Part shown: piece after piece, positions 33,137 through 63,827 of the stretch
Numbering within the stretch: position 1 is the first letter of the stretch
How the letters are laid out: each line of letters opens with the position of its first letter
From: Alphaproteobacteria bacterium
GTDB lineage: Bacteria; Pseudomonadota; Alphaproteobacteria; CAAHEQ01; UBA3637
Direction of reading: 5' to 3'
Assembly (NCBI GenBank): GCA_045638265.1
Contig: JAZUBA010000077.1
Coordinates: 4,655-68,654 of the forward strand
Length of the DNA stretch: 64,000 bases
The notes under the pieces: generated by a model
What the model was told of the DNA's origin: nothing
Databases searched by the model: none
Seen by the model: the letters and a program-made list of their open reading frames with translations, nothing else
Position numbers and translations under genes: made by a program

Positions 33137-33213
33137 GTTCCCGTAGCTCAGTAGGATAGAGCGTAGGATTCCTAATCCTAAGGCCGTGGGTTCGATTCCC
33201 TCCGGGAACGCCA
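33137..33213 (+). tRNA. tRNA-Arg (anticodon CCT)
   Basis: Hand fold: acceptor GTTCCCG/CGGGAAC; D-arm GCTC-AGTAGGATA-GAGC; anticodon arm TAGGA-TTCCTAA-TCCTA (U33, CCT, A37); T-loop TTCGATT; encoded CCA. There is one U-U mismatch in the T-stem. Confidence 0.7.
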
Positions 33214-34433: not shown

Positions 34434-34508
34434 GTATAAATATTGACAAATTATTCTTTTTAATGTATCTTATAACAATATATGAAATTCAAGCAAAAGG
34501 AAAACGAA

Positions 34509-35192: not shown

Positions 35193-35942
35193 ATGACAAA
35201 TTTAAATTATCGTGAACAGGAAAAAATATGGTTTCAATATATTGAAAAAAACGATATTGAAATGATAAAATCTTGTATTAAAGAAAATTTTGATATTAAT
35301 TTACAAAACAAAGATGGTGAAACAGCGTTGATGAAATTTGCACAACAAGGAAATAATGAAGTTGTTGAATTGTTAATCAACGCAGGGGCAAATTTAAATA
35401 TAACTGATGAATATGGTGATACGGCTTTAATTAAAGCGATTGAACATTTTCATTTAAACACATTAAAATTGTTAGTTGAACGTGGTGCAGATATTCATCA
35501 GGAAAATGAATCTCATGATTCGCCGTTGATGGTTGCCTGTGAAATCGGAAATGTAGAAGCCGGACGATATTTGCTAAATCAAGGAGCTAATCATCGGCAT
35601 ACAAATACTTGTGATGAAACAGCCGTTATTAAAGCAGCCCAACATGGGTCGTTGCCTAACTTAATGGATTTAATTTCTGTTGGCGCCGATATTAATGCAC
35701 AAGATACACGTGGTAAAACAGCATTAATGCATGCCATTGAACAAGGACATAATAAAGTTGTTGATGTTTTATTGTTACACAAAGCAAACACAGCCATTAA
35801 AAACAATCAATGCAAAACGGCCCGACAAATTGCCTATCAGTGTAAAAATAAAACAGCATTGTATTTATTTTCTATACATGAACCCGGTTTGAAAGATGTA
35901 TTTAAAATGTTGCTCTTTGGGTTTCAAAGGCAACGTGATTAA
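35193..35942 (+). CDS. Ankyrin-repeat protein
   Basis: GETALMKFAQQG, GDTALIKAIEH, DSPLMVACEIG and KTALMHAIEQG repeats. Confidence 0.8.
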   Translation: MTNLNYREQEKIWFQYIEKNDIEMIKSCIKENFDINLQNKDGETALMKFAQQGNNEVVELLINAGANLNITDEYGDTALIKAIEHFHLNTLKLLVERGADIHQENESHDSPLMVACEIGNVEAGRYLLNQGANHRHTNTCDETAVIKAAQHGSLPNLMDLISVGADINAQDTRGKTALMHAIEQGHNKVVDVLLLHKANTAIKNNQCKTARQIAYQCKNKTALYLFSIHEPGLKDVFKMLLFGFQRQRD

Positions 35943-37295: not shown

Positions 37296-38267
37296 ATGAG
37301 AGAATTGTCAGTAGATGAGTTGTGTCAAAATGTACATCGTCCGATTAAAGGGACTTTTCGCATATATAAAACTAAACCTAAAACCTCTGTTGAACAATCT
37401 GTTACGGAAATGATTGAAGAAGCAAAACAACAAAAGTGTATGATTGTTTCAGAATTTAAAGGTATTCCCATTATGGTTGATGAGCAATCAACCGTTTCTG
37501 GTATTGTGAAATCTTATGAATGTGAATCTAAAGCACGTTTGGCTGAAAATAAAGAAATGCGAAAGTTTGTGATTAATTTAAAACAAACATATTTGATGAA
37601 TTTGTCAATGGGAACAGATATTTATACTGCTACAGATAATATGATTAAGGTTGCTCAAGCTTTAAATGGGATTGTATTTGCAAAATTCAATACCGTTCCC
37701 TTTGCCGTTAATCAACATTCAACTCTTGACGGGGTTATTAACGGTTTTCAAACAGAAGTGAGTGAACGAAGTGAAGCATATAAAAATTCACCAGAGGGTC
37801 AAAAACGGGCATTAGAAGAAAAACGGCGAGAAATTGAAGATTATAAATTAGGGATTCAGGTTGATGAACTTATTAAAAATGAAGAATTGTCCATCACATC
37901 TCCAATTCATTTTAATAAATTAAAAACAAATGCTGAAAAAGAGGGGTTATCAGCCATTGTTGATGTTGCCAATCGTTGGGGTCGTTTAATGCAGATTGAA
38001 ATGAAAAATCAAAATACAAACAAATTAACGCAGAAAATGGTTGCTTCAACTTATAAAATGGCAACAGCCGGAAAGTCGGATTATAATCTGTCCGGTTCTC
38101 TGTATGGCTTTGTACGTAATATGTTGATTGTTTGTTGGGATAAGGGTCGTGATTTAGCACAAATTGAACGATTTAATATGACAGAAGTTGATACGGTTCG
38201 TCATGAAGTTCAATCAGCTGAGAAGAATATTAAAACGCCAATTAAAACAAATAATTATACACGATAA
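37296..38267 (+). CDS. Hypothetical protein
   Basis: 323-aa ORF with a strong promoter, RBS and terminator; no recognisable motif. Confidence 0.5.
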   Translation: MRELSVDELCQNVHRPIKGTFRIYKTKPKTSVEQSVTEMIEEAKQQKCMIVSEFKGIPIMVDEQSTVSGIVKSYECESKARLAENKEMRKFVINLKQTYLMNLSMGTDIYTATDNMIKVAQALNGIVFAKFNTVPFAVNQHSTLDGVINGFQTEVSERSEAYKNSPEGQKRALEEKRREIEDYKLGIQVDELIKNEELSITSPIHFNKLKTNAEKEGLSAIVDVANRWGRLMQIEMKNQNTNKLTQKMVASTYKMATAGKSDYNLSGSLYGFVRNMLIVCWDKGRDLAQIERFNMTEVDTVRHEVQSAEKNIKTPIKTNNYTR

Positions 38268-38383: not shown

Positions 38384-39031
38384 ATGCAAAAAAGATTATA
38401 TTTTTTACGCCACGGTGAAACAGATTGGAATCTGGATGGTAAAATGCAAGGACAACAAGATATTCCGCTTAATTCTACCGGACGTGAGCAAGCATATATA
38501 ACAGGACAAATATTACAACATCAGCCGATAGGACGTATTGTTAGTGCAACTTTATGTCGAGCTTATGAAACGGCAAATATTGTTAATTCCTTTTTAAACG
38601 TTCCACTAACTCAAACAACAGATTTAAATGAATTATCAGCTGGTATATGTGAAGGGAAAAGTTTGCGTTTTATTTCTATGCAATATGCACCTCTCATTAA
38701 AGATATGTTGGATAAAACAAATCCGAATCGGTTTTCATTGTCGTTACCAATGGGTGAAAGTTGGCGAGATGCAGAAAGACGAGTGTTAGACTGTATTAAT
38801 GAAACGGCATTAACATATCCTGAACATCATATTCTGTTTGTATCGCATTATGGGATTATACAAAATTTATTAATAACGCAACTGGGAATAGATTTTGAGC
38901 AAAATAATTGTGCATGTGTTTCGTGTTTGTATGATACGCAAACACATCAATTCAGTCAATATGAATTGGTATATGCCGGTTGTGAAAATTTTGAAGACAA
39001 CGGAGCAAATGATAAACCTGTTTTATTTTAA
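38384..39031 (+). CDS. Histidine phosphatase family protein (phosphoglycerate mutase-like)
   Basis: LYFLRHGETDWN catalytic RHG motif; 215 aa. Confidence 0.75.
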   Translation: MQKRLYFLRHGETDWNLDGKMQGQQDIPLNSTGREQAYITGQILQHQPIGRIVSATLCRAYETANIVNSFLNVPLTQTTDLNELSAGICEGKSLRFISMQYAPLIKDMLDKTNPNRFSLSLPMGESWRDAERRVLDCINETALTYPEHHILFVSHYGIIQNLLITQLGIDFEQNNCACVSCLYDTQTHQFSQYELVYAGCENFEDNGANDKPVLF

Positions 39032-39043
39032 AAAGGAGATAAT

Positions 39044-39619
39044 ATGTCTAAATATAAACCATATTTTCCCGCACTGGCAAAATGTGCACCAGATAGTTCA
39101 TTTTTTAATGAAACAATCAGTTTGGCAAATAATAATGGCGAAACGGTTTGTTCGCATTGGCGAGCTTATCATCATCCGGATGGTATGTATCCTATCATCG
39201 GAGCAACTTTTATTTTAAATAGTGAAAACAAAATTATTTTACAAAAAAACTCACGCTATAAACGAACAGATGCATTAAAATGGACATTTTCGTCAGGCGG
39301 ACATATTGATGCAACGGAAACCCAAGAGCAGGGTGCTTTAAGGGAACTTTTGGAAGAAATGGGGATAAAGGGTGTACTTGATTGCAAAATAGGCGTTTAT
39401 CGTAATATGCGAAATGGTAAACCGGGTGCTTTTTATACGGTTTGGTTGGTACGACACGATGGTCCGTATCAAATTGATGAACAGGAAGCCGATTGTATTC
39501 GTGCTTTTACGCTGGATGAAGTTTATGGTATGGTTCAAAAAAATCCTAATGATTTTAAACAACCGTTTGTAACAGCTTTTCTTGATTTTTATAAGAGAAG
39601 AAATGAATTTGGTGTTTAA
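39044..39619 (+). CDS. NUDIX hydrolase
   Basis: Nudix box GGHIDATETQEQGALRELLEEMGI (Gx5Ex7REUxEExGU). Confidence 0.8.
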   Translation: MSKYKPYFPALAKCAPDSSFFNETISLANNNGETVCSHWRAYHHPDGMYPIIGATFILNSENKIILQKNSRYKRTDALKWTFSSGGHIDATETQEQGALRELLEEMGIKGVLDCKIGVYRNMRNGKPGAFYTVWLVRHDGPYQIDEQEADCIRAFTLDEVYGMVQKNPNDFKQPFVTAFLDFYKRRNEFGV

Positions 39620-39711: not shown

Positions 39712-42700
39712 ATGTTAAACATCAATAAAAAACAAAAATCAGAAACCAAACTCAAATTAGAAAAAAAGAGAAAAAAGTTAGGGAAACCAATACGTTTAAC
39801 ACATACTTTTGCAAAAGCAAAAAATAGTGCAGTTTTCAGAACTGCACGAAAATCATTGAAAGCAGTTCCTTATATGGGAACAGGCTTAGTATTTGGTGAT
39901 AGCGAATTAATACGATTAATTACAAAATTTGATTTAGCTAAAATAGCAACAAACAACATTGATGGCCTTTTGCATATAAAAGATGCTGCATCGTATATCA
40001 TAAATAATCCAAAAGAAGTTACCAATGAATTATTCGGAGAAGGATTAATTGCTGGCATTCGTGAAACAGCGGTAACCTTACATGATAACATTTCATTAAC
40101 AGGCCATGTCATTGATCCTTCACATAAAGCAAAAGCTTGGATTGCAGACAGTCTTGGTGCGCACAAAGTGTCCTACATAGATGAAAATGGAGAATCAAAA
40201 TTATCCATCGAGAAACAAGAGTATATCTACTCATATGTGCCTTATGGTCCCGACTCGGAAGCACGAGCCAGACTTTTTGTTTATCGACCAGCAGAAGGCT
40301 TAACAGATCAAACAGATGCTAATGGTGAAAAAATAAGAGAATTTTTAAGGGTTCCTGTTGCAGAATTTGACATTCAAAATGACCGCGTAACATATGAAGT
40401 TGAATACAATTCAGATGGGACAAAAACTATTCATTCATATAATGATGAAAATCCGCAATATCAACACTTACAAGAAAATTTTCTAAAAAATAAAATCATC
40501 AATACAAATGAAATTTTTGCTCGTTTCGGAATGCCTGAAACAAAAGTCGGCAACTATTTTGGACAAAAAACAGCAACAGATGTTTTAAAATCAATTAAAA
40601 TAGGTAAACGGATTAGTTCACAAACATACGGCAAAGGAGAAACATATACCGTAATTGATTGGGATAATAGTCAAGATGATAAACTTGTATTTGCAGAAAT
40701 ATACGAACAAATGAATACAAAAACATCTGCTAGATCTCAGTCAGCAGGTATCGTTATGAAAAATATAACAAAAGGAACTGAATATAATAGTGTTTCATAT
40801 GAAGATTTAAAAGAACTAGGTATCAATATCAATGGCGACAAAAATGATTTAAATGTAAGAACACGCATTTTAAAAGATATTTCAAAGAAACTTCATTATA
40901 TCAGAGCAACACAATCTTTTCAAATCATTCAACCTTACCAAGAAACAACTCAAACAAATTTTCAATATTACCGACAAACTGTTAATTATATAAAGAATAC
41001 TGAGGATGAACGTTCAGATTTTTTTAGCAAACATCCATTGTTTGGTCAACGCGACAACACATATATTTCTGAAATAATTGATTATAATATAAATGAAAAA
41101 TCTTTTTTTGACAAAGATGGAAATATAATTTTAAGTGTAACATTTGATAATCCTTCTCAATATAATCATTATCAATATATACCCAACAACATTTTCATTC
41201 CAACAAATACGGATGGGATTAATATGCAATTTGCTCCAACGGGAGAATTTTTAGGCTTTCAATCGGACGAACACACTGCCAATTTAGAAAAATTAAAGCG
41301 ATTACTTGCAGAAAAAGAATTATTACAAAATTTTGATTACTTAAAAAAAACTCTTGGTGTTAAAACATTACCTGAAATACGTAACAAACTAAATCAATTA
41401 TCTAAAACAGAAGATGTTTCTGCATGGGTTGAAATAGTTAATAGTATAGAACACTATGATTTAAAAAATTTTGATGCTCAAGTAATTGATGTGGAATTAG
41501 AAAAATTTACTGCAAAAAATGAACAATTTGAAAAACAGTTTACTGAACTTAAAAAGAAACATATTCAGCGGAATAAAGATGGAAATATTCGTATTTCAAC
41601 AAAATATCATCCGCTTATAATTGGTAAGGAAATTGTTGTAACAAATGAAAACAATAAAAAAGAAAAAATCATAAAAATCAATCAGCTTACGGGATATCCA
41701 CTTACCTTTGAAACATCAGAATATAAATCTCATCGTGATTTTCCGATAGAAGAAACCGATACACAAGAATTTTATTCTTACATGGGCAGAGAAGGGAATT
41801 TTGACTATTATAGAATTAATTACAATGGAACACCAAATACACAAAATTACGGTGGATATGTAAAAGAAGATGCTGTAACGGGAATTTGTCATACATTTAA
41901 TCGCCATGGAAATTGTATTTATATTGATGTCCCTAATGGAGATATAAACACAGATGAAAATTGGGCTTACAATTCAAACTCTGATAGGTATAAACGCATA
42001 TATGAAATGATTATCGAATCAGACAAAGGAGGTGTTTTTTCCAATAATGATGTTCTTGAAATGGCAAAAAAACATAAAGAAACTAACATTCCATTTGATT
42101 ACTTCTCCAAATTAGCAAAATACGAACATATGTTAAAGGAACCTCTGAGAATATCTGGTATAAAAAATCAATATATTCGCTTAAATACATATACGGCTGA
42201 ATTAATCAAAAAAGAGCTTATAACAGATACATATATTGATAACCAACTGAAATGCTTATCTGAATTGGAAACCATATTAAACGGGATTCCAAAACAAACA
42301 GCAGCAATTAAAACTCAAAAAGAAGCATTAAAAAAACAACGCAATATTTTAAAAGAAATGTATCAAAAACCAATAGATGAAAAGACACAAGATATCATCA
42401 AACAAGTTTTACTTTTTGATAATCAGGCAAAGCATTGTCTTTATATACCTTCACACGCTACCCAAATTGATACCAATCAATATATATCAAAAAATGATAA
42501 TTATACAAAAAACTCAGTTATAACAAAATGTTACAATCAAAAAAATCCAGCACAAACTGTATATCGCATTAATTCAAACAAGGGGGAATTTGCTGGATTA
42601 ATTATTGAAGATAAAAAAACAACAATTTGTCAAATATATGATAACAATGGATATTTAATTGAAGTAGACAAACCATTAGACACTTCTTCCGATGAAACAA

Positions 42701-43047
42701 ACTGGTATTCTTTGAATGATTTAAATAATCCTCGCTTATGTGATATGATAGACATTGTTGCAAAAAGAATGTCGTTATATCAATATGCATATGGTATAAA
42801 TAAAAATTGTCCAACATATGAAAATCGTTTAACAAAACAAATACGTTTTGATAAATTTAAGGAAAGGAAGAAACTTGAAATGACAATAGCAGAAACAGAT
42901 TTTTCTCCATTTTTTGATGATTCATATTCATATACGGATAATCTTATCAATGAGACATTGGTCAAAAATGCACAAAAATTTGACACAGATTCTAGGGATA
43001 TTAAAAATAAAAATTCATCTATTTCAAATAAAAATCAATCCAGATAA
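39712..43047 (+). CDS. Very large (1111 aa) orphan hypothetical protein with basic N- and C-termini (candidate secreted effector)
   Basis: Single long ORF, Asn/Lys/Tyr-rich, no recognisable catalytic motif; N-terminus KKQKSETKLKLEKKRKKLGK. Confidence 0.5.
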   Translation: MLNINKKQKSETKLKLEKKRKKLGKPIRLTHTFAKAKNSAVFRTARKSLKAVPYMGTGLVFGDSELIRLITKFDLAKIATNNIDGLLHIKDAASYIINNPKEVTNELFGEGLIAGIRETAVTLHDNISLTGHVIDPSHKAKAWIADSLGAHKVSYIDENGESKLSIEKQEYIYSYVPYGPDSEARARLFVYRPAEGLTDQTDANGEKIREFLRVPVAEFDIQNDRVTYEVEYNSDGTKTIHSYNDENPQYQHLQENFLKNKIINTNEIFARFGMPETKVGNYFGQKTATDVLKSIKIGKRISSQTYGKGETYTVIDWDNSQDDKLVFAEIYEQMNTKTSARSQSAGIVMKNITKGTEYNSVSYEDLKELGININGDKNDLNVRTRILKDISKKLHYIRATQSFQIIQPYQETTQTNFQYYRQTVNYIKNTEDERSDFFSKHPLFGQRDNTYISEIIDYNINEKSFFDKDGNIILSVTFDNPSQYNHYQYIPNNIFIPTNTDGINMQFAPTGEFLGFQSDEHTANLEKLKRLLAEKELLQNFDYLKKTLGVKTLPEIRNKLNQLSKTEDVSAWVEIVNSIEHYDLKNFDAQVIDVELEKFTAKNEQFEKQFTELKKKHIQRNKDGNIRISTKYHPLIIGKEIVVTNENNKKEKIIKINQLTGYPLTFETSEYKSHRDFPIEETDTQEFYSYMGREGNFDYYRINYNGTPNTQNYGGYVKEDAVTGICHTFNRHGNCIYIDVPNGDINTDENWAYNSNSDRYKRIYEMIIESDKGGVFSNNDVLEMAKKHKETNIPFDYFSKLAKYEHMLKEPLRISGIKNQYIRLNTYTAELIKKELITDTYIDNQLKCLSELETILNGIPKQTAAIKTQKEALKKQRNILKEMYQKPIDEKTQDIIKQVLLFDNQAKHCLYIPSHATQIDTNQYISKNDNYTKNSVITKCYNQKNPAQTVYRINSNKGEFAGLIIEDKKTTICQIYDNNGYLIEVDKPLDTSSDETNWYSLNDLNNPRLCDMIDIVAKRMSLYQYAYGINKNCPTYENRLTKQIRFDKFKERKKLEMTIAETDFSPFFDDSYSYTDNLINETLVKNAQKFDTDSRDIKNKNSSISNKNQSR

Positions 43048-43134: not shown

Positions 43135-44007
43135 TTACTCTCTACAACCTCGTTCTTGGTGTGCTGCCAAAGATTTTTGTTGTGTTGTTACTTTTGATAT
43201 ACCTGTTTTTATTGTATCCATTTTTTGAATTAAATGTTTTAATTCAATAAATTGGATTGAACTCTTAATCATTGTGCTATCTTTAATAGCTTTATAAGCA
43301 TAATCACGAGCCGTTTCCCCAAATTCATTTTGAAGCGTTATATCTGCCCCGTTATTGATTAATGCTTCAGCAATATTATAACGCGCATTTTGAATGGCTA
43401 TCATTAATGCCGTTTCACCCCATCTGTTTTGTTTGTTTAAATTGGCATTTAATTGAATAATTTGTTCTACATCACTTGTTTTACCTGTATGAGCCAACAA
43501 CATTAAAGCAGTATTACCGTCTTTATTTTTTGCATTTATATCAGCACCGGCTTTGATTAACGATTCTGTCAAATATGTTTTCCCCGATGTAACAGCATAC
43601 ATCAAAGCAGTAAACCCATTTTTTTCTTTATCATTAACATTTGCCCCATTCTGAATTAATGTTTCTGCAATGTTTTTGTGACCTCTGCTTGCCGCCCACA
43701 TTAAAGGTGTTATACCATTCACATCTTTAACGTTTATATCTGCTTTGGCATGAATTAAAGCCTCTACAATTTGAGTTAAACCATGGTAAGCAGCCTCCAT
43801 TAAAGGTGTATTCCCAAGCATATCTTTTGTATGAATATCTTTGCCTTCATTGATTAATGCAATTGCTTTTTCTTCATGACCTTGTTGAATTGCCTCCATT
43901 AATAAAGATTTTTTTTCTGCTTGTGGGTAATATACGGCACAATCCATATTCAGGATAGGTTTAATGTCTATCATTTTTTTTCTCCATAAGTTGAAATTAC
44001 TATTCAA
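43135..44007 (-). CDS. Ankyrin-repeat protein
   Basis: Six or more canonical repeats (GNTPLMEAAYHG, GITPLMWAASRGH, GFTALMYAVTSG, GNTALMLLAHTG, GETALMIAIQNA). Confidence 0.85.
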   Translation of the reverse strand: MNSNFNLWRKKMIDIKPILNMDCAVYYPQAEKKSLLMEAIQQGHEEKAIALINEGKDIHTKDMLGNTPLMEAAYHGLTQIVEALIHAKADINVKDVNGITPLMWAASRGHKNIAETLIQNGANVNDKEKNGFTALMYAVTSGKTYLTESLIKAGADINAKNKDGNTALMLLAHTGKTSDVEQIIQLNANLNKQNRWGETALMIAIQNARYNIAEALINNGADITLQNEFGETARDYAYKAIKDSTMIKSSIQFIELKHLIQKMDTIKTGISKVTTQQKSLAAHQERGCRE

Positions 44008-44136: not shown

Positions 44137-46746
44137 TTAGTTTGTTTTGACTTTCTTTTCATCTTCTCCAAAAACACAAGTTGTGATAGATAATTCATTA
44201 CCTGCATTATAAGAAATATTATTTTCTTTGATGTTTGCTGCATTAACAATATCTTCTTGTGAAGCTTGTAAGACGGGAATGTCTTTTTCAGGAGCAGATA
44301 CAACCAATTCTAAAACAGGTGTTTTAACAGAACGTTTTTCTTCTGCTTTTTGTTTGCGAATTAAGTTGATGAGTGCAACAGACATATCATAAACCGCTGG
44401 ATTTCCTTTAATGGATTCTAATTCAGCTACTTTGGGGAATGAGGCTTTGTGAATAGATTCATTACCTGTATGCCATGGGCGTGATTGCCAAATTTCTTCT
44501 GTTGTAAAGCTCATAAACGGAGCAAATAAACGCATTAAAACATCAATTGTCAACATCAATGTTGAAACAGCGGAAATTGGGTTTTCACTGTATGCACGAC
44601 CTTTGACTAATTCCAAATAGTTGTCGCAGAAGTCCCAGAAACATTTTTCCGTTACTTCAAGAGCAAAAGCGTAGTCGTTGTTTTCAAAAGATTTATTTGC
44701 TGTTGCAATGACTTCTGATAATTTAGCAACCCAAGCTTTGTCTTCCTCGCTTGTAATATTGTTTTGATAATCAGATGTCAATGAAATACCTGATTTTTCA
44801 ACCATCATAAATACGAATTTAGAGGCATTAAATATTTTCATACTTAATTTACGGCCTTGTTCCATAATTTGTTCTTCAAAGGCAGTATCAATACCTAATT
44901 TTGCACGACTTGCCCAATAACGAACGGCATCAGAAGAATGTTTGACCAGTAAATCCATCGGTGTAATAACATTTCCTTTTGATTTACTCATTTTCTTTCT
45001 ATCCGGATCCAAAATAAATCCACTGATTAAAGCTTCATGCCACGGTTCTTGTTTTTCATGTGCATAAGATTTCATAATTGTGTAGAATGCCCAAGTCCGA
45101 ATAATATCATGTGCTTGCGGACGGATATCAAACGGCATTGTAATATGATGACCTTCCGGTGCGTGAGCGATTGCAATTTGCGGTGTTAAAGAACTTGTTG
45201 CCCAAGTATCCATAATATCTTTATCGCCGACAAAACCGTTAGGTTGATTGCGTTGTTCTTCCGTATAACCGGTAGGAACGGCAATCATCGGATCAATCGG
45301 CAATTGGTCAACTGTCGGGTAAATTGGTGAATCATAATCAATAATGCCTTTTTCATTGATTTTGTACCAAACAGGGAAGGGAACGCCAAAAAAGCGTTGA
45401 CGGGAAATACACCAATCTTGATTTAAACCGTCCACCCAAGCTTCATAGCGAGATTGCATGTGAGCCGGTGTCCATTTGATTTTTCGACCCATTTCCAATA
45501 AGTCGTTTTTCAAACTTAAAATAGAAACAAACCATTGGCGGGAAGAAACGAATTCCAAAGGAACAGAGCCTTTTTCATAAAATTTAACCGGATGCATTAA
45601 CGGTTTCGGTTCGCCGACTAAATCACCGCTTTCACGTAAAAATTCTACAATTTTAGCACGAGCATCTTTGACTTTTAATCCTTTGATTTGTTCATAATAT
45701 GAACGAGCTTTTTCAGCGTTCAATGATACAAAATTACCTTGACCGTATTCAATATCCATTAAACGACCGTCTAAACCAATGATTTGTTTGATTGGCAAAC
45801 CCGATTTTTTCCACCAAGCGACGTCAGCGGCATCACCAAAAGTACAAACCATCATAATACCGGTTCCCTTATCCATTTCGGCATGTTCTGACGGAACAAT
45901 CGGAACAGGAATGTCAAAAATCGGTACAATGGCTTTTTTACCGAAAAACGGTTTGTAACGTTCATCATCAGGGTGTGCAACAACGGCAATACAAGCCGGT
46001 AAGAATTCCGGACGAGTTGTTGCAATTGTGAATTTGGCATCACTATCTTCAACACCGAAGTGAATGTCATGGAAGAAACCGGCTGTTTCTCTGTCTTCAA
46101 TTTCAGCTTGTGCAACGGCAGATTGGAATGTAACATCCCACATTGTCGGAGCTTCAACTGATTTTGCCAAACCGTTATGAACCAAGTCTAAAAATGATTT
46201 TTGAGCTTCTTTGCGTGATTTTTCATCAATAGTAGCGTATTTTAAACTCCAATCATAGGAATGACCGATATGGCGGAAAATATCTTCAAATACTTTTTCA
46301 TCATTTTCAACCAAAATATCACAGGCTTCAATAAAGTTTTGACGAGAGACTTCTTTTCTTGGTTCAGTTGATTTCGGATTATGTTCCGGTTTAAAATTCG
46401 GGTCATATGGCACGTTTGGATTACATGCAATATTAAAGTAATTTTGAACACGGCGTTCTGTCGGTAATCCGTTATCATCCCATCCAATCGGATAGAAAAT
46501 AGATTTACCGAGCATACGGTTGTAACGAACCATTACGTCTGTTTGAGTATAAGAAAAAATATGTCCGATATGCAAAGAACCGGAAACAGTCGGAGGAGGG
46601 GTATCAACAACAAATGTGTTTTCACGAGAAGCAGTTTTATCATATTGATAAACATTATTTTCTTCCCAAAAACGAATGGCCCGTTCTTCCATGGCTGGTG
46701 CATTAAATTTGTCATCTAATTTTTTAATTTCTTTGTATTGCGACAT
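44137..46746 (-). CDS. valS: Valyl-tRNA synthetase
   Basis: HIGH region PPPTVSGSLHIGH; KMSKS motif KMSKSKGNV; WCISRQRFFGVPFPVWY editing/connective region; 869 aa. Confidence 0.8.
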   Translation of the reverse strand: MSQYKEIKKLDDKFNAPAMEERAIRFWEENNVYQYDKTASRENTFVVDTPPPTVSGSLHIGHIFSYTQTDVMVRYNRMLGKSIFYPIGWDDNGLPTERRVQNYFNIACNPNVPYDPNFKPEHNPKSTEPRKEVSRQNFIEACDILVENDEKVFEDIFRHIGHSYDWSLKYATIDEKSRKEAQKSFLDLVHNGLAKSVEAPTMWDVTFQSAVAQAEIEDRETAGFFHDIHFGVEDSDAKFTIATTRPEFLPACIAVVAHPDDERYKPFFGKKAIVPIFDIPVPIVPSEHAEMDKGTGIMMVCTFGDAADVAWWKKSGLPIKQIIGLDGRLMDIEYGQGNFVSLNAEKARSYYEQIKGLKVKDARAKIVEFLRESGDLVGEPKPLMHPVKFYEKGSVPLEFVSSRQWFVSILSLKNDLLEMGRKIKWTPAHMQSRYEAWVDGLNQDWCISRQRFFGVPFPVWYKINEKGIIDYDSPIYPTVDQLPIDPMIAVPTGYTEEQRNQPNGFVGDKDIMDTWATSSLTPQIAIAHAPEGHHITMPFDIRPQAHDIIRTWAFYTIMKSYAHEKQEPWHEALISGFILDPDRKKMSKSKGNVITPMDLLVKHSSDAVRYWASRAKLGIDTAFEEQIMEQGRKLSMKIFNASKFVFMMVEKSGISLTSDYQNNITSEEDKAWVAKLSEVIATANKSFENNDYAFALEVTEKCFWDFCDNYLELVKGRAYSENPISAVSTLMLTIDVLMRLFAPFMSFTTEEIWQSRPWHTGNESIHKASFPKVAELESIKGNPAVYDMSVALINLIRKQKAEEKRSVKTPVLELVVSAPEKDIPVLQASQEDIVNAANIKENNISYNAGNELSITTCVFGEDEKKVKTN

Positions 46747-46925: not shown

Positions 46926-47888
46926 ATGACAGACGACAAACAAATTAAAATAGATTTTATAGCTGATAAAATACCGGCATTTTATATCTATTTATTAGAG
47001 AAGGGTTATTTTGCACAATTACCTATTGTTAAGGACAATGTTTTTTTTAAATCCTTAAAAAAATTACAGGAAAATTTAAATCAACGCAAAATTCAAACTC
47101 ATGAAGAACTATATCGTTTTGTTCATGATTCTTTTTTAAATAAAATTCAAGAGAAAACTACTCATATTAATGAATTTCAATCACATTTTCAGGCGTATAG
47201 TCAATTTTATGATAAAAACAAGATTTCCGTTGAAGCTTATGTTCAGGCATTAAATGATACTCAAAAATCTTATGCCGAACGATTAAAGCAAATGTATTCA
47301 TTTTTAAAAATTAAACCTGAATTTAAATGTAGTGGTATTGTAACACCTGTTCCGTTTAAAGATATTGACGGGGCAGGGAATCCACAAGGGTTTTATATCT
47401 TGTTTACGCCTGAAAAGAAAAAAGATGAAGTATATATCGGTGATTCATTGTTGCCGGAACGTAAACAATATACGCCATTACATGAAGCCGGACATGTGTT
47501 ATATGCTAATTCCGGTGTTCGTAGAGATTTAGCGGAACAAAAAGGATTAGGCGCCAGAAAGCTGATATTAACTTTAAGTAAGTACTTTTTTGAAAATCCG
47601 AATAAACGGCTCAACAAAAATATGATACCGGCTTGGAATGCATTGGCATGTGTTGATGAAGCCGTTGCCGTTTTTTCTGCCTCTATTTCATCTGATAAAG
47701 TTGGTTATTACGGGTGGGAAACCGCCGATACATTAAGCAAAGAATTTTATCCGATAGCTGCTCGGTATTTACAAGAAAACAAACCTATGGATGATAATTT
47801 ATATAAAGCATTGGCCGTTGCTTTTGAAAGGAAAGTTTATCAAAACAAAGTGCAAAAACCAATATCAAAACTTCAATCAGAAAGATAG
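46926..47888 (+). CDS. Hypothetical protein with an HExxH motif (possible zinc metallopeptidase)
   Basis: TPLHEAGHVLYA; 320 aa; no other recognisable domain. Confidence 0.45.
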   Translation: MTDDKQIKIDFIADKIPAFYIYLLEKGYFAQLPIVKDNVFFKSLKKLQENLNQRKIQTHEELYRFVHDSFLNKIQEKTTHINEFQSHFQAYSQFYDKNKISVEAYVQALNDTQKSYAERLKQMYSFLKIKPEFKCSGIVTPVPFKDIDGAGNPQGFYILFTPEKKKDEVYIGDSLLPERKQYTPLHEAGHVLYANSGVRRDLAEQKGLGARKLILTLSKYFFENPNKRLNKNMIPAWNALACVDEAVAVFSASISSDKVGYYGWETADTLSKEFYPIAARYLQENKPMDDNLYKALAVAFERKVYQNKVQKPISKLQSER

Positions 47889-47958
47889 TCAACAAAAATC
47901 CCCTGAAATTAATATTCAAGGGATTTTTGCTTGTTTGGTAGTTTTAATAATACAATTA

Positions 47959-48156
47959 TTAATTATCTTTAGCAACACAATCTGTTGAAGGTTTATATTC
48001 GATAATACCGTTTAATGGGTTTCCTTGTAAATCGTAAACCAAATTACTGCCTTTTTTTAATTGAACTTGATTATGTTTATATACTGTTTCAGAAAAAGCT
48101 GTTTGTGAGATTGCAATGCAACCAAATATAATAGTATGAAAAATTATTTTTTTCAT
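47959..48156 (-). CDS. Small secreted protein (signal peptide)
   Basis: MKKIIFHTIIFGCIAISQTAFS leader; 65 aa. Confidence 0.35.
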   Translation of the reverse strand: MKKIIFHTIIFGCIAISQTAFSETVYKHNQVQLKKGSNLVYDLQGNPLNGIIEYKPSTDCVAKDN

Positions 48157-48240
48157 TCATTAACCTCCTGTATATAATAACTATACAGAAAACAGATAAA
48201 TGATGCAATGATAATTTGTGAATTTTATTGTTTTTATATA

Positions 48241-48268
48241 AAAAAAACATCCTGTTGAGAGCAGGGTG
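48241..48268 (-). terminator. Rho-independent terminator (T-run on the minus strand) just outside the phage-like element
   Basis: CATCCTG-ttgagag-CAGGGTG hairpin preceded on the plus strand by AAAAAAAA (equivalent to a T-run after the hairpin on the minus strand). Confidence 0.5.
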
Positions 48269-48764
48269 CTTGTTTTAAAAATGCAATAAAAAATTATTTT
48301 GTTGCAATATTGATAAATGGTAACGGCGCAGAACCGTATATATTAACCGGTAATTTTCTATCCCATTCATTTAAAAGAAGCACAAATATTGTTTCTTTAA
48401 AAGATACTAAAATCAAAAAACATTTTAAAATAAACATAAAGCATTGATATTTTTAGTTTGTTTTTTATATTTAAAGTGATTAAGGACGTTTTAGAACGAT
48501 CAAATTAAATTCTGGTGTATAAATACTTAAAAATGTCTTTAAAAATTGAGTATTGAGAGCAGAGTTGTATTACGTAAGGTATTATATGAGATAGAGAATA
48601 GAAAAGTAGATTAATACTGTGATAATTGATGACAATATCAAATAGTATGATTTGTGATAAACGAACCAACATAGCATTCACAAGTAAAGTTATAAACAAA
48701 GTTATCCACAAATGTTATAAGAATATGATTTTAAAAGATTTTTACTTATTTCTTGTTTATCTGT

Positions 48765-48792
48765 TTGTCGCATAATTTTTATTATGTTAACT
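48765..48792. other. dif site (XerC/XerD chromosome-dimer resolution site), functioning as attL of an integrated element
   Basis: TTGTCGCATAA-TTTTTA-TTATGTTAACT versus E. coli dif GGTGCGCATAA-TGTATA-TTATGTTAAAT: 22/28 identical, XerD arm 10/11, with an internal CATAAT/ATTATG palindrome. Confidence 0.7.
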
Positions 48793-48923
48793 TGTAGTTA
48801 ACATGATGAAAGTTTTATCACTTAAAATTTAACATTTCTTATCTGAAAGCGAGGTGTTTATAAAATCAATGGTATAATTAAGGTATTATTTGTTTTAACT
48901 TTTTTTAAAAAAGGAGTCTAACC

Positions 48924-49379
48924 ATGAAAAACGAATCCCAAGTCTTTTTTGAAAATATTTTAAACCAATTAAAAGATATTCAAATCAAACATACGGCAAT
49001 TTTAAACGAAATAAACGCCGTACAACAACAATCACGTATTTTGGCTGAACTGGTAGCCTGTTTTTTAAATAACCCGCTGTACGTTAAAAAAAACGCCCTT
49101 ATTGTGCGTTCTATTAACTCATATCTGAAAACTGGTTTAAATTTAGACCAAGCCATGATTAAAACGTCCGAAAGATTGTGCGAATCGTTCAGACGTTGCC
49201 AAGTTGTTTATAACGTGGAAAAAAATCATGAAAATGTAATGAAACAGTATGCAATCCGGCACATGGTTTTGACGCTTGCAAAAAATGGATTTTCCAAGCG
49301 CCAAATTGCCAAAATATGCGGTTTTTCCGAAAAATATCTATACGATTTTATCAAGAAAAACAAGGAGAAACAACGTTAA
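48924..49379 (+). CDS. Hypothetical protein with a C-terminal HTH-like segment (phage regulator?)
   Basis: FSKRQIAKICGFSEKYLYDFIKK; 151 aa; GGAG RBS; first gene inside the dif-bounded element. Confidence 0.4.
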   Translation: MKNESQVFFENILNQLKDIQIKHTAILNEINAVQQQSRILAELVACFLNNPLYVKKNALIVRSINSYLKTGLNLDQAMIKTSERLCESFRRCQVVYNVEKNHENVMKQYAIRHMVLTLAKNGFSKRQIAKICGFSEKYLYDFIKKNKEKQR

Positions 49380-49522
49380 TTGAACCAACCAATAAACGTT
49401 GAAATGAAACTCATTAAATCACCCGTACCGGTTAAATATGAACCGATAGATGTAAAAATATATCCCCAAAACGATTTATTTTTGATTGTAGCCTTGATTT
49501 TATCTTTCATGCCCTACCCCCC

Positions 49523-49717
49523 TTAAAAAAATGTCATTTGTTGCTGTGAGCGTCTTTTTGTGCGTTTTTTGACCGTCTTTTTTTTCGGTTTAGCTGTCTT
49601 TTTTGTTTTTGACTTCATTTTGTTGTATATTTTCTTGCGTTCTTCTGCCGGCAATCCTTGCGTCATGCAAGCCCAATACGCCTTTTGGTATTTTCTATAT
49701 AATGCTGTTGTTGTCAT
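49523..49717 (-). CDS. Small highly basic protein (KKTAKPKKKTVKKRTKRR tail), possible DNA-binding/packaging protein
   Basis: 64-aa ORF at the end of the phage late block. Confidence 0.3.
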   Translation of the reverse strand: MTTTALYRKYQKAYWACMTQGLPAEERKKIYNKMKSKTKKTAKPKKKTVKKRTKRRSQQQMTFF

Positions 49718-49896
49718 TTGTGATATCCCTCCAATTTTTTTAGACGTTCATCGTACATGTTAATTTTAAATTCAATCTTTAAAATTCTTGTTTCAATGCG
49801 CATTACCTGAAACAAGATAATGATTGATATCCCGAAAGCCCCGTATGTTTCAATTAACGTTTCTATCATTTCAAATACTTCTTCCAAACATACCAA
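49714..49896 (-). CDS. Small hydrophobic phage protein
   Basis: 60 aa with one TM-like segment (AFGISIIILFQV). Confidence 0.3.
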   Translation of the reverse strand: MVCLEEVFEMIETLIETYGAFGISIIILFQVMRIETRILKIEFKINMYDERLKKLEGYHK

Positions 49897-50078
49897 CCAG
49901 CAATACCTAATACGCCGGCAATAACTAAATCTTGATTATCTAATTGCTTATTTTGTGTTATTACGCCATTTTCGGCATTAATAATTACATCTGGATTATC
50001 GGTTGCATTATTTATTACTGTTCCGATATATGCCCCACCAAAAAATGCTCCTACAACTCCCAAAACTACCGGTAACAT
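49866..50078 (-). CDS. Holin-like small membrane protein
   Basis: 70 aa with two glycine-zipper TM segments (LPVVLGVVGAFFGGAYIG, LVIAGVLGIAGWYVW); immediately downstream of the lysin. Confidence 0.4.
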   Translation of the reverse strand: MLPVVLGVVGAFFGGAYIGTVINNATDNPDVIINAENGVITQNKQLDNQDLVIAGVLGIAGWYVWKKYLK

Positions 50079-50089
50079 AAAAAGACCTC

Positions 50090-57512: not shown

Positions 57513-57540
57513 GAGTGATAAAATTTTTATTATGTTAACT
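57513..57540. other. Pseudo-dif site (attR): conserved spacer and XerD arm, degenerate XerC arm
   Basis: GAGTGATAAAA-TTTTTA-TTATGTTAACT. The last 19 nt are identical to the dif copy at 48774-48792; the XerC arm matches only 5/11. Confidence 0.6.
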
Positions 57541-57802: not shown

Positions 57803-59527
57803 ATGATGTCTTTACTTTATTCAATCCTTTCCAAAGAACAAAATTGGCAATTTGATGCTGAAAATAATCAAATGATTTTTCAATGTCCTGATGTGTATCA
57901 AGATTGGCAAAACAGTACTTTTGTTTTTTTGGATTTATTGCACTTAAAACCTTATACGTACCAAAATCGTTTGGCATTAACTCAAAATGAATACAATCAG
58001 TTTATCAAACAATCTAAACGGTTAAAGTTTTTACGCTCTTTACCAAACGAGTTACGTTATTTATATCAATTAAATTATTGGAAATCTGTTTCAAATCAAT
58101 CTTTTATGGCGATTAATCTGTCTGATTTAACCGATAAATCATTGCAAAAATTAAAAAATTACTTTGATGAACATCATATTGCTTATACACAAAAAAACAA
58201 ACAAATTCATATTTCTAAATATGATTATGTTCATCTTTATAAAAATTTAGATGGTTTTAAAGCTCTCATTCCTGCCATTTGTTATAAAACGGATACTATT
58301 ATCCCTTTTACAGCCAAAGAATGGCAACATCATTTTAAACAGACAAAATTATTCGGCCGTTTGTTTTCTGATTCAGCTTATTATAAACAAACATTATACC
58401 AAAGCACTGTTGATCATCCGATTAATATGTTTATTTTAAGAAACAATCAATTCTTAACTTTATTAAAGCAAGATGAACTCAAAACAACAAATATGTATGT
58501 TGATTCATCAACTGATACAAACAAACGTCTTGATGAAATTGACGCGTTGGGACTTTATTCTTGGCCAGGGGATTTTATTAATCTGCATACGAAAACACTT
58601 CATAGTTATAATTTTATATCTACCCTACTCCATGAAATCAATCATCGGACACAATTTTTGAGTGATTTGGAATATAAGTCTTTTGCTATTAATCAAGTGA
58701 TGGAAGCTTCTTCAACGGCTGTCAGTATTATTAACGAAATAAATCCGCCATACGATAAGATTTATGACGATTGTTTTGATTTTATTGAACAAAATTTAGA
58801 TAAAAACACTTATAAGAAATATCTTTTAAACACCTCTTTGCCGGAACAAAGACTGTATTCGTTAGATTATTTAATCAAAGCCGAAGCCGAATTAAAAATG
58901 CATCAATGTATTACGGAAATGTATTTAGCTAAAGATCGTTCCTCACTTTATGATGTTTTGATAAAACACAAAATTTCACTGGATAGTCATGATTTTAATG
59001 ATTTATGTGAGGATATAGATTATTGGAAAAATTATAATCTAAATCACTATCTGACATTGTCCAAAGAGGAAAAATATCCAAATGAAAACAATGCGATTTT
59101 ACAGGAAATATTCAATTTGAACATCCATACGTCTCCAACGGCGCTTTTTACCGTTGATGAGTTGAAGCAGCTTGGTTTTGATACAAAAGATACAGCCCCT
59201 ACTCCATTAAAACTTAAATATACCTATCAAGGTATCACTCCTGAATTGTTAGAAGAAGCAACGACTGATTTTAATCAGGGAAATGTTAATGCTTTAAATA
59301 AAAAATTAGTTGCTTTACAAAAGGTTAATCCCATCTTACAAGGCATTTATTGGGAACCTGGTGATTTTGAAGCTAAAGATATTTTAAATGTCTTTCAATC
59401 AATGGCAGAAAATAAACCAATTTCAAACATTCTTTCACAACTCAACTTTAATATGACAGATAAATCAAAGTCTATTCAGTCGGCACAAAATAAAGTTATT
59501 CAAATCAGAGGTCAGCGTCAAAGATAA
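57803..59527 (+). CDS. Large hypothetical protein with an HExxH motif (candidate metalloprotease-like effector)
   Basis: 574 aa; STLLHEINHRTQFLSD; no other recognisable domain. Confidence 0.45.
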   Translation: MMSLLYSILSKEQNWQFDAENNQMIFQCPDVYQDWQNSTFVFLDLLHLKPYTYQNRLALTQNEYNQFIKQSKRLKFLRSLPNELRYLYQLNYWKSVSNQSFMAINLSDLTDKSLQKLKNYFDEHHIAYTQKNKQIHISKYDYVHLYKNLDGFKALIPAICYKTDTIIPFTAKEWQHHFKQTKLFGRLFSDSAYYKQTLYQSTVDHPINMFILRNNQFLTLLKQDELKTTNMYVDSSTDTNKRLDEIDALGLYSWPGDFINLHTKTLHSYNFISTLLHEINHRTQFLSDLEYKSFAINQVMEASSTAVSIINEINPPYDKIYDDCFDFIEQNLDKNTYKKYLLNTSLPEQRLYSLDYLIKAEAELKMHQCITEMYLAKDRSSLYDVLIKHKISLDSHDFNDLCEDIDYWKNYNLNHYLTLSKEEKYPNENNAILQEIFNLNIHTSPTALFTVDELKQLGFDTKDTAPTPLKLKYTYQGITPELLEEATTDFNQGNVNALNKKLVALQKVNPILQGIYWEPGDFEAKDILNVFQSMAENKPISNILSQLNFNMTDKSKSIQSAQNKVIQIRGQRQR

Positions 59528-59529
59528 TT

Positions 59530-60297
59530 TTATTCTTCTGATATGATTTCCAATCCGTCATAACAAGGATAAACGTTTTTCGGTAATTCACGACATAAAT
59601 CATCGTAATCCATCATATTACCCATATGGGTCAAATATGTTTTTTGAGCGTTAATGTGTTTTATCCAATCCAAAGCAATATCCAAATGAATGTGTGTACG
59701 GCATTCAATACGAGAAACAACGCCCAAAATCCATAAAGATAAATTTTTTAAATAAGGAAAAGCTTTGTCATCTAACTCTGTCCAATCCGTTGTATATGCC
59801 ATATTATTGATTTTGTAACCGTATGAAATACCGTTTACGCCATGACTTTGTTTCAATGGTGTTATTGTATTCGTTCCGATAAAAAAAGCTTGATACGGCT
59901 CAATAATATGAATCTCAAACAAATCTTTATGAATATTATTGTCAAATAAATAATATAATAACCGTTGAAATTCTTTTAAATCATATTCGGAAATATAAAT
60001 CGGTAAATGTCCACCTTGTTTTTTGGAAATCATAACCAATTCATTTGCGCCACCCATATGGTCATAATGGTCATGCGTATACAAAACGGCATCAATTTTC
60101 GGAATGCCGACACTTAATAATTGTGTACGTATATCAGGACCTGTATCTATTAATATATTTTTTCCGTCATCGGTCAAAATAAGAGCTGAAGTTCTTAAAC
60201 GATGATTTTTAGGATTGTTTGGATTTACATTACCAAATCCGTAAGCCAAAGATGGTAAACCGCCGGAAGGACCACATCCTAATATTTTAACTTTCAT
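59530..60297 (-). CDS. Metallo-beta-lactamase-fold hydrolase
   Basis: HxHxDH motif VLYTHDHYDHMGG; 255 aa. Confidence 0.7.
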   Translation of the reverse strand: MKVKILGCGPSGGLPSLAYGFGNVNPNNPKNHRLRTSALILTDDGKNILIDTGPDIRTQLLSVGIPKIDAVLYTHDHYDHMGGANELVMISKKQGGHLPIYISEYDLKEFQRLLYYLFDNNIHKDLFEIHIIEPYQAFFIGTNTITPLKQSHGVNGISYGYKINNMAYTTDWTELDDKAFPYLKNLSLWILGVVSRIECRTHIHLDIALDWIKHINAQKTYLTHMGNMMDYDDLCRELPKNVYPCYDGLEIISEE

Positions 60298-60298
60298 T

Positions 60299-61078
60299 TT
60301 AACCTGGCTCCTTTAAAAACAATTGTTTAAAATTATCTGTTGTTGCTTTATCAATTTCTTCCAAAGTTACTTGTTTTAATTCTGCTAATTTTTGGGCTGT
60401 ATGAACGACATAAGCCGATTCATTGACTTTACCGCGGTACGGAATTGGCGCTAAATAAGGAGAATCCGTTTCAACCAACAATCTGTTTAACGGTATGGTT
60501 TTAAATATTTCTTGTAAATCAATGGCTTTTTTAAATGTAACAATGCCGGATGCAGAAACATACAATCCCAAATCCAATGCAAAATCAGCCATATTTTGAG
60601 AGGCTGTAAAACAATGCAATACACCCCCTGCTCTTAATAATCCACCGTTATAAGCTGATTTCAAAATGGCTTTTGTGTCTTCTTCTGCCTCTCTGGTATG
60701 AATAATAATCGGTAAATGTAAAAGAGAAGCCAACTCAATTTGTTTTTCAAAAGCCGATATTTGACTTTCTTTCATGTCTCCTCCGTAATAATAATCCAAC
60801 CCGATTTCACCCAGGGCAATCAATGACGGTAATTCAGCATAAACGGCTCGAGAGCGTTTTTCATTATATTTGGTTGCATTTTCAGGATGGATACCAAAAG
60901 CCCCATAAACATTTGGATATGACATCATCATTTTTAAATCCTGTACATCTTCGTAATCGCAAGCAACCGTTAAAACATCGGTTACATTCGCTTGTTTTGC
61001 CCGTTGCAAAACATCTTCAACAGCACTTTGTTCATCATTCAAAGCACCTATTCCTAAATGGCAATGACTGTCTATCAT
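60299..61078 (-). CDS. tatD: TatD-family metal-dependent hydrolase/DNase
   Basis: MIDSHCHLG N-terminal motif, a TIM-barrel His/Glu/Asp pattern, 259 aa; in the conserved tmk-holB-tatD arrangement. Confidence 0.85.
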   Translation of the reverse strand: MIDSHCHLGIGALNDEQSAVEDVLQRAKQANVTDVLTVACDYEDVQDLKMMMSYPNVYGAFGIHPENATKYNEKRSRAVYAELPSLIALGEIGLDYYYGGDMKESQISAFEKQIELASLLHLPIIIHTREAEEDTKAILKSAYNGGLLRAGGVLHCFTASQNMADFALDLGLYVSASGIVTFKKAIDLQEIFKTIPLNRLLVETDSPYLAPIPYRGKVNESAYVVHTAQKLAELKQVTLEEIDKATTDNFKQLFLKEPG

Positions 61079-62028
61079 TAATTTAATTCTCCGCCAATAC
61101 GTAATAATGTATTGATAATAATTTGTTTTTTATCTAAATATAAAGAATTGGTTTTTCCAAATAAAGCTTGTATATCAAAATATAAATCTGTTAATAATTC
61201 CCCTTTCGGATGACAGGAAACAGCATAACGACGGGTTTTGTCAAGTAAAATATGATTTAAAAAGCTTAAAAACAAATCGTATGTTACTTCATCTTTTGAC
61301 ACATCTTCGGCAAATTTATTCAGTTGTTCAATATTGACCTGTTGCAAGGGAACCAAAAAAGCATTTATTTTTTGATATAATTCAATACCGTTTTGCTGAT
61401 AAATCATATCAGCCATTCCAAAAGAACCATTTGACAATTCAGCCATCAATTCGGGTGCTTTGCAATTCGGATATGTTTTTTGAATATAAGCAACCGTATT
61501 TTCAAATGTTTCCAATGGAAAAATAATTTTCCGACAACGGGAACGAATGGTTGGTAATAATTTACCTGTATTTTCAGAAATCAAAATAATGACACTACGT
61601 TCATAAGGTTCTTCTAATACTTTCAACAATGCATTGGCAGCATTGATATTCATATCTTCTGCTAACGATACAATTAAAATCCGAAATTCCCCTGCTCCTG
61701 GTTTTAATGATAAGAATTGGATTCCCTCCCGAATATCATCAACCGTAATTTCTTTTTTACGAGCAACCGTTTTGGCATTTTCTTCAACTTCTTTACCGGC
61801 CAAAATCATTTTTTGGATTTCTTTTTTTGCTTCTTCCGTTAAACCGCATTCAATCCACTTAATTTGTGAATTATAAGCATAATCTTCTGCCCAATTGCCT
61901 GATGTTAAATAATGTGCCAAAGAAGAAACAAAGGCTTTCTTACCAACACCAAACGGACCACTAATCAGCCATGAACCACTGATTTTCCCTTTTTGAATAA
62001 CCCTTAAAATCTGTTCTTTGGGTGTCAT
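61078..62028 (-). CDS. holB: DNA polymerase III delta-prime subunit
   Basis: Degenerate AAA+ P-loop LISGPFGVGKKAFVSSLA; SRC region PTIRSRCRK; overlaps tmk (ATGA) and tatD. Confidence 0.8.
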   Translation of the reverse strand: MTPKEQILRVIQKGKISGSWLISGPFGVGKKAFVSSLAHYLTSGNWAEDYAYNSQIKWIECGLTEEAKKEIQKMILAGKEVEENAKTVARKKEITVDDIREGIQFLSLKPGAGEFRILIVSLAEDMNINAANALLKVLEEPYERSVIILISENTGKLLPTIRSRCRKIIFPLETFENTVAYIQKTYPNCKAPELMAELSNGSFGMADMIYQQNGIELYQKINAFLVPLQQVNIEQLNKFAEDVSKDEVTYDLFLSFLNHILLDKTRRYAVSCHPKGELLTDLYFDIQALFGKTNSLYLDKKQIIINTLLRIGGELN

Positions 62029-62666: not shown

Positions 62667-62679
62667 AGAAAATTGCTCC

Positions 62680-63813: not shown

Positions 63814-63827
63814 TATATTTCCTCGCT

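Follow-up and report, generated by a model that had tools for sequence, protein, structure and literature searches.

The dif-type site and the element beside it

The window (the whole 64,000-nt, or 64-kb, stretch of DNA that was analysed) comes from an uncultured animal-gut alphaproteobacterium, whose best relatives are MAGs labelled Alphaproteobacteria or Candidatus Enterousia. At 48765-48792 it holds a 28-nt site of the dif type, followed directly by a phage element and, further to the right, by a block of housekeeping genes. The features are listed below in the order of their coordinates.

48793-57512, strand not applicable: integrated PM2-like (double jelly-roll, Vinavirales-type) temperate phage of 8.7 kb, recognized by homology to L081/L092/L093 and by gene content
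48796-48823, minus strand: inverted, diverged dif-like partner of attP, reading AAGTGATAAAA CTTTCA TCATGTTAACT on the minus strand
48924-49379, plus strand: 151-aa protein with a C-terminal HTH (Pfam HTH_23, E 6.6e-5), the first gene after attP
50090-50611, minus strand: cell-wall hydrolase for lysis (Pfam Hydrolase_2, E 1e-21)
50978-52039, minus strand: spike or receptor-binding protein (Pfam Gp53-like_C and BppL_N; 51-nt tandem repeats)
53812-54684, minus strand: double jelly-roll major capsid protein, PM2 P2-like, 290 aa (AlphaFold model and PDB match)
54890-55570, minus strand: FtsK/HerA-type packaging ATPase, 226 aa (Pfam DUF87/HerA; PHROG 2666, E 7e-21)
56587-56681, minus strand: DnaA-box cluster, two perfect TTATCCACA and one with 1 mismatch, beside the HTH_36 gene
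56710-57039, minus strand: HTH_36 replication-initiator-like protein (Pfam HTH_36, E 1.2e-15; PHROG replication initiation)
57175-57462, plus strand: Cro/CI-type repressor-like HTH protein, 95 aa, encoded by the gene that directly precedes attP in the circular form (PHROG regulator/repressor; Pfam HTH_19/HTH_3)
57513-57540, plus strand: attR, the phage-derived dif-like copy, reading GAGTGATAAAA TTTTTA TTATGTTAACT
59530-63813, minus strand: housekeeping block of Lactamase_B_2, TatD, DNA polymerase III delta', thymidylate kinase and PBP5, which also borders the dif/prophage locus in L082-L084

On the plus strand, 48765-48792 reads TTGTCGCATAA TTTTTA TTATGTTAACT, i.e., an XerC-type arm, a 6-nt centre and an XerD-type arm in the 11 + 6 + 11 layout of a dif site, with palindromic inner arms (CATAA/TTATG). 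Its G+C content is low (6/28), and it lies inside an intergenic gap (47889-48923), both as in known dif sites. It is identical to E. coli dif at 21 of 28 positions; seven or fewer mismatches were also reached in 15 of 300 windows simulated with a Markov-1 model (~5%), and a 3-mismatch dif core pattern was found in 9 of 100 shuffles. The resemblance to E. coli dif is therefore weak evidence alone in DNA of 35% GC, and the case for a working dif rests on other evidence. The XerC arm TTGTCGCATAA is that of Magnetospirillum magneticum dif in reverse complement (Table 1 in PMC2731167, the catalogue of proteobacterial, including alphaproteobacterial, dif sites by Carnoy & Roten, 2009). It is also common to the dif sites of the related loci L082/83/85 and L088/89 and matches at 10 of 11 positions in L103. 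Furthermore, the 28-mer acts as a recombination substrate, for it is here that the circular phage genome and the chromosome have crossed over. The lineage dif consensus is TTGTCGCATAA-N6-TTATGT(T/A)(A/T)A. Genes for xerC, xerD and ftsK were not found within the window.

A previous sequence-only reading had already recognized the site as dif, and the layout, the phage-chromosome junctions, the sites of relatives and the polarity switch described below all speak for this. Its assumption of a single dif is not quite accurate for the window, in which two degenerate copies accompany the one complete copy: a direct one at 57513-57540 and the inverted, diverged one at 48796-48823. That reading overlooked the main feature, namely that the site doubles as attL of a phage, probably integrated by Xer recombination, whose other end is a further dif-like copy at a distance of 8.7 kb.

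A perfect DnaA box (TTATCCACA) is present on the plus strand of the chromosomal flank (48702-48710), starting 63 nt before dif. A DnaA box stands at the identical 63-nt offset before dif in L082/L083/L085, within the conserved flank ATAAACA[A/G]AGTTATCCACA.

An integrase-less phage with a double jelly-roll capsid

Besides the listed genes, the element encodes small structural genes, and none of its ORFs matched an integrase or recombinase family in the Pfam and PHROG profiles. The combination of a P2-type capsid protein with a P9-type packaging ATPase identifies it as a double jelly-roll phage. The AlphaFold model of the capsid protein (pLDDT 93.5, pTM 0.90) had its best PDB match in 2vvf_A, the P2 protein of PM2 (E 2.6e-18, TM 0.76/0.81, rmsd 3.0 A), with further double jelly-roll capsids ranking behind it, and the capsid homologues match Pfam P2_C/P2_N. 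These homologues fall into at least 65 clusters, many of them on contigs of 8.0-9.1 kb. Neither the capsid nor the 151-aa protein matched any of 50,697 deposited phages in tblastn, and a capsid back-translation scan of IMG/VR gave no relative. Membership in the Corticoviridae was considered and rejected, given the lack of tblastn matches to deposited phages and a different replication module: only the fold and the gene order are common. PM2 has a rolling-circle nickase, in contrast to the HTH_36 initiator and DnaA boxes of the window element, and the DnaA-box cluster at 56587-56681 is possibly a DnaA-dependent phage origin.

The gene order around attP agrees with that of PM2, in which the HTH gene occupies 850-1128, attP 747-763 and the DUF3653 gene 77-550. 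Of the two terminal genes, the repressor-like HTH gene is present, and the gene in the PM2 P15/XafT position codes for the 151-aa HTH protein, for which no similarity to DUF3653/PM2 P15 was detected by Pfam (to E 10), BLASTP or PDB sequence search. Its AlphaFold model (pLDDT 64.7, pTM 0.34) was too poor for fold comparison. By analogy, this protein might, purely as a hypothesis, help integration as XafT does for TLCphi.

The spike gene contains six 51-nt (17-aa) tandem repeats at 51580-51972. The spike region (50626-51894) is also the only large segment that could not be aligned to the 90%-identical circular L081, which suggests that it may be a swapped host-range cassette.

Attachment junctions and free forms of the phage

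The last 19 nt of the right copy (57513-57540) are identical to those of 48765-48792 and have the same orientation, whereas its XerC arm is degenerate and matches the host-lineage consensus at only 5 of 11 positions. The same attR 28-mer is present exactly once, as attP, in the circular forms L081 and L093, where the attR element-side flank, GAGTGATAAAATTTTTATTATGTTAACT and the attL element-side flank follow one another and make up the attP junction. Homology to the free phage genome starts within the dif site, at 48774. The prophage is ~90-94% identical to the ~8.2-kb contig L081 (8,198 bp, with a capsid 97% identical to that of the prophage) and to the partial contigs L092/L093. L099, L102, L108, L109 and L111 end in terminal repeats whose length (141 or 87 nt) is that of the assembler k-mer, the usual mark of a circular genome. 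The attL junction was also seen in other samples (L094, L098), and L098 has the same dif with a chromosomal left flank that is nearly that of the window.

Thus, the attP, attL and attR junctions were each observed together with their flanks: attL and attR are hybrids, the free form carries a dif-like attP, and one dif is regenerated. The crossover can be located to the 19 shared bases, which is the finest resolution that the sequences allow. Contigs L092, L095, L096 and L097, which have an identical 151-aa gene, start 20-50 nt past attP, in or just beyond the hairpin described below; such starts at the att site are consistent with branching of the assembly graph where integrated and circular forms coexist.

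An empty attB, i.e., a phage-free dif, was not found by synteny, protein look-up or metagenome searches, which is a failed search and not evidence of absence. Among 80 loci of related genomes that surround the adjacent gene for a class-I aminoacyl-tRNA synthetase, none had a dif within 6 mismatches, and synteny with those loci stops at the synthetase gene. Exact-protein look-ups of both flank genes returned nothing on record, an exact 28-mer scan of JGI metagenomes gave 0 matches, and so did the attP scan of IMG/VR.

The same arrangement in related hosts

The same architecture was observed at the dif of relatives. In L082/83/85, dif reads TTGTCGCATAA TTTATA TTATGTATAGT and the other end GTGTTGTAAAG TTTATA TTATGTATAGT, with a related phage in between, the capsid of which is 84% identical to that in the window; the locus adjoins the same Lactamase_B-TatD-holB-tmk-PBP5 block. 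More distant phages, with capsids 34-42% identical to the window capsid, adjoin TTGTCGCATAA TGTATA TTATGTATAGT in L088/89 and ATGTCGCATAA TATATG TTATGTTAATT in L103, and these loci have a common ABC-transporter block next to the phage. The phage copy of the L088/L102 sub-lineage has a degenerate XerD arm instead (position 6763 of L088), and the attP of circular L102 reads TTGTCGCATAA TATATA TTATTTAGAAT. Comparison of the sites across hosts shows that the XerC arm is conserved while the centre and the outer XerD arm vary, and that each phage attP copies the centre and one arm of its own host's site.

Local signals of the probable replication terminus

The sequence-only reading had placed the replication terminus inside the window, and the local tests (the sign change of the skew, the polarity of GGGNAGGG and the switch of G-rich words between 47711 and 49512) agree with it. 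Cumulative GC skew climbs as far as ~41 kb, forms a shoulder at 48-49 kb and declines beyond it. The local maximum is ~7 kb away from 48765-48792, equal to the published median distance between dif and the skew peak (~7 kb; PMC2731167). When the skew of each gene was regressed on the coding strand plus a step, with the prophage excluded, the replication component was ~0.04-0.05 (0.10-0.12 at third codon positions) and changed sign in the window; the best step was at 40-41 kb and the second at 48-49 kb. This estimate is blurred by two low-GC orphan genes (39.7-44 kb), and the right arm has only six chromosomal genes.

The octamer GGGNAGGG occurs in 9 copies in the window against 0.82 expected, a number reached in 0 of 100 shuffles. 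Left of the site, all seven copies are on the plus strand, five of them within minus-strand genes, and to the right both copies are on the minus strand. When the octamers that contain six or more G are taken together, the switch of polarity has its maximum likelihood between 47711 and 49512 (log-likelihood -14.3 versus -29.8 without a switch), with 21 plus and 6 minus on the left and 0 plus and 16 minus on the right, where polarity is confounded with the coding strand and only 6.5 kb is chromosomal. Polarity also switches at dif in L082, L083 and L088, with GC skews of +0.15 to +0.23 versus -0.13 to -0.15, and L103, for which a single chromosomal flank is available, shows negative polarity there, as expected. 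In the related loci, control octamers of the same composition were about as polar as GGGNAGGG, and therefore only the polarity of G-rich words is claimed and a specific KOPS motif is not established. A de novo search for skewed 6- to 8-mers in the window gave none significant after multiple testing. Of the KOPS-like octamers that the sequence-only reading expected to converge on the site, it is thus the strand switch of G-rich words that was observed and not a defined motif.

Gene orientation had also been invoked. The minus-strand block at 59530-64000 is real and consists of 5 genes, but the minus-strand genes at 50.1-57.0 kb belong to the prophage. Left of the site, 23 genes are on the plus and 13 on the minus strand, mixed as described, but 64% are co-oriented and there is no evidence of the proposed rearrangement. 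A chromosomal oriC in the window was rejected, as the perfect DnaA boxes number only 4 and do not cluster on the chromosomal part. Overall, the location of the terminus at this locus is supported locally, and the site presumably lies opposite oriC.

The prophages themselves are polar as well. Their G-rich octamers are on the minus strand in the window prophage (11/11) and in L082 (11/12), and on the plus strand in the L088 and L103 prophages with the opposite attP arm (16/16 and 14/15), in each case matching the replichore and pointing to the complete dif; this replichore-matched polarity comes from two independent lineages only and is confounded with the coding strand.

A strand-specific hairpin around attP

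In the circular form, the inverted partner (48796-48823) lies 3 nt from attP, and the two form a 28-bp hairpin. Such a partner follows attP at 3, 13 or 14 nt in the window-, L082- and L110-type phages (the pair is at 2223-2281 in L081, ~15190-15262 in L082 and 4791-4969 in L110). The L099/L111-type phages lack the hairpin, and L108/109 have only part of it. In all, attP and partner differ at 22 points, made up of 19 transitions with G/T in attP and A/C in the partner, 0 in the reverse direction, and 3 transversions (composition-corrected direction bias, P 4e-4, or 7e-3 when each position is counted once). As a result of this bias, G.T/G.U pairing is kept on one strand only, which is the sense strand for each of the two flanking genes. 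The sense strand folds into uninterrupted 28-30-bp stems of -32.1, -37.7 and -30.3 kcal/mol (z -9.5 to -11.0), compared with -18.2, -16.3 and -9.2 kcal/mol for the antisense strand, and the non-dif outer arms of attP and partner co-vary between lineages.

On integration this hairpin is divided, one part going to attL and the other to attR. The folded attP of CTXphi is likewise made up of two inverted dif-like sequences that pair on one strand; an HUH or rolling-circle protein, as in CTXphi-type replication, was not found among the element ORFs. Whether as a CTXphi-like folded recombination substrate or as an RNA switch that senses the circular versus the integrated state, a function of the hairpin along these lines is a tentative and rather doubtful proposal. 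In the version of an RNA switch, it could act as a terminator or an RNase III site that separates the repressor gene from the gene next to attP and exists in the circular form only.

The surrounding chromosome

The window has a single tRNA gene, tRNA-Arg(CCT) at 33137-33213, which is unconnected with the prophage. Six ankyrin-repeat proteins are encoded (5965-7083, 13841-15472, 15491-16930, 34482-35174, 35193-35942 and 43135-44007), together with a Sel1-repeat protein (2618-3295); repeat proteins of these kinds are eukaryote-like and typical of host-associated bacteria. The ankyrin genes and the 35% GC had prompted the idea of Wolbachia or another endosymbiont, which was rejected in view of the related MAGs; there is no evidence for the endosymbiotic life style that the sequence-only reading had suggested.

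The chromosomal gene at 37296-38267 encodes a 323-aa protein matching Pfam Tad4, a Type I Thoeris inhibitor (E 2.4e-6; 28.2 bits versus a cut-off of 25). Low-GC (27-30%) orphan genes without a Pfam match are found near dif at 39712-43047, 46926-47888 and 57803-59527. The last of them, a 574-aa gene, is absent at the equivalent position in L082-L084, which shows the dif neighbourhood to be variable. In L072, the closest MAG (synthetase 90% identical), the region 5825-7031, compared with 38384-39619 and 44137-46746 of the window, has the His_Phos_1 and NUDIX homologues on the opposite side of the synthetase gene. This implies that close relatives differ by an inversion near the terminus region.

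Discussion

Comparison with known Xer-dependent elements

The window site shares with the chromosomal dif/XerCD systems (E. coli; PMC2731167) its 28-bp layout, palindromic inner arms, intergenic position, low G+C content and the location at a local switch of skew and polar words, while its centre TTTTTA and outer XerD arm are lineage-specific. Double jelly-roll prophages that integrate at dif are already known from Vibrio and Pseudoalteromonas, including PM2 (PMC12715192) and the NO16-like phages (PMC9966536). Like those in PMC12715192, the window element has no integrase, and its one-armed attP of the 17-bp type consists of the XerD arm and the centre, as in PM2. This attP is located between a repressor gene and a small regulator gene, both of which become the prophage termini. 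Further common points are the regeneration of dif at one junction, the P2-fold capsid, the P9-type ATPase and the occurrence of both 'left-armed' and 'right-armed' attP variants. As opposed to those prophages, the window element lives in a gut alphaproteobacterium and its regulator lacks homology to DUF3653/XafT; in three sub-lineages, attP lies in a strand-specific hairpin.

Jorvik-like phages of Rhodobacter and other Alphaproteobacteria (PMC10589892) are similar in their ~9-kb circular genomes of the membrane-phage type, the lack of an integrase, the dif-like attP/attB and the alphaproteobacterial hosts. However, the attB of Jorvik is in a RuBisCO operon, whereas the window site is at a polarity switch, and no sequence similarity was found in the phage collection, which may or may not include Jorvik. 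With TLCphi and the gonococcal genetic island (IMEXs; PMC9226527), the element has in common a double-stranded attP of which one arm is degenerate, a reaction that is intrinsically reversible, and a position between one good and one poor dif. In those elements the poor arm is that of XerD, in the window element that of XerC, although in the L088/L102 sub-lineage it is the XerD arm again, as in TLCphi; unlike TLCphi, no XafT homologue was found in the window element. The CTXphi attP likewise consists of two inverted, imperfect dif-like sequences that form a hairpin on one strand. Yet, CTXphi is a filamentous ssDNA phage with rolling-circle replication, as opposed to an element with a capsid, a packaging ATPase and a theta-type initiator. 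Moreover, the double-stranded attP of the window element already has the dif half that is used, and its hairpin leaves the degenerate arm unrepaired.

Interpretation of the site

The site is most probably both the chromosomal dif at the terminus and the attL of a PM2-like phage that was inserted by host Xer recombination. XerC and XerD of the host would resolve chromosome dimers at 48765-48792, where both replication arms meet. A circular, integrase-less phage genome of ~8.2-8.7 kb, whose attP is made up of the host dif centre, the XerD arm and a degenerate XerC arm, would recombine with dif through the host Xer system and thereby be inserted on the XerD-arm side. Such an insertion would regenerate the complete dif at the left junction (48765-48792) and leave the crippled phage copy at the right one (57513-57540); the phage-free junction is predicted to read ...CTGTTTGTCGCATAATTTTTATTATGTTAACTAATATACAAGG.... 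By analogy with the systems above, we infer that XerC and XerD are the catalysing enzymes, and the order of strand exchange is inferred likewise.

The most serious competitor, a secondary attB that attracts phages by its likeness to dif but neither resolves dimers nor marks the terminus, draws on the example of Jorvik, with its dif-like attB inside the RuBisCO operon and a location of attB that is called variable (PMC10589892). It seems unlikely here, since the polarity switch coincides exactly with the site in the window, L082, L083 and L088, and two phage sub-lineages with opposite attP arms use the same kind of site. The XerC arm, which is missing from the attP of this phage, is nevertheless conserved across hosts and equals a published alphaproteobacterial dif arm. 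There is even less to commend the idea that the functional dif is the right copy (57513-57540), or neither, and that the left copy is a mere scar of recombination. Both copies do possess the centre and the XerD arm, the better-conserved half of dif (PMC2731167), but the XerC arm of the right one is phage-derived, identical in the free forms and too far from the consensus (5/11), while the conserved XerC arm is carried by the left one. In addition, elements of this kind are described as regenerating, as a rule, one canonical dif (PMC12715192). We regard a functional right copy as very improbable.

Other Xer substrates could in principle look the same, as the cer/psi-like sites for plasmid multimer resolution and the pdif sites that bound Acinetobacter-type modules are XerCD-dependent, dif-like 28-mers, too. 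The chromosomal housekeeping genes of the window (two aminoacyl-tRNA synthetases, a Mur ligase, holB, tmk and PBP5) speak against a plasmid, and the full-length copies are direct repeats around a phage and not inverted pairs around a cargo gene, so that only a slight chance is left for either kind of site. Finally, an AT-rich palindrome that arose by chance and has no Xer function would explain the match to E. coli dif, which ~5% of the simulated windows equal. It would not explain an exact crossover point between phage and chromosome that is repeated with lineage-specific sequences in other hosts; being refuted by the junctions, a chance origin has a negligible probability.

Significance

As a probable dif and attL in one, the site provides a defensible terminus marker for an uncultured lineage of gut Alphaproteobacteria, plus the lineage dif consensus, and the minus-strand genes immediately to the right of it represent a prophage and not replichore structure. 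The range of Xer-exploiting PM2-like phages is extended from marine Gammaproteobacteria and Rhodobacter to animal-gut Alphaproteobacteria, with a phage family in which many complete circular genomes of ~8-9 kb are available and the free, integrated and junction forms have all been captured. The hairpin at attP and the replichore-matched polarity of the prophages are leads on the control of integration in minimal phages.
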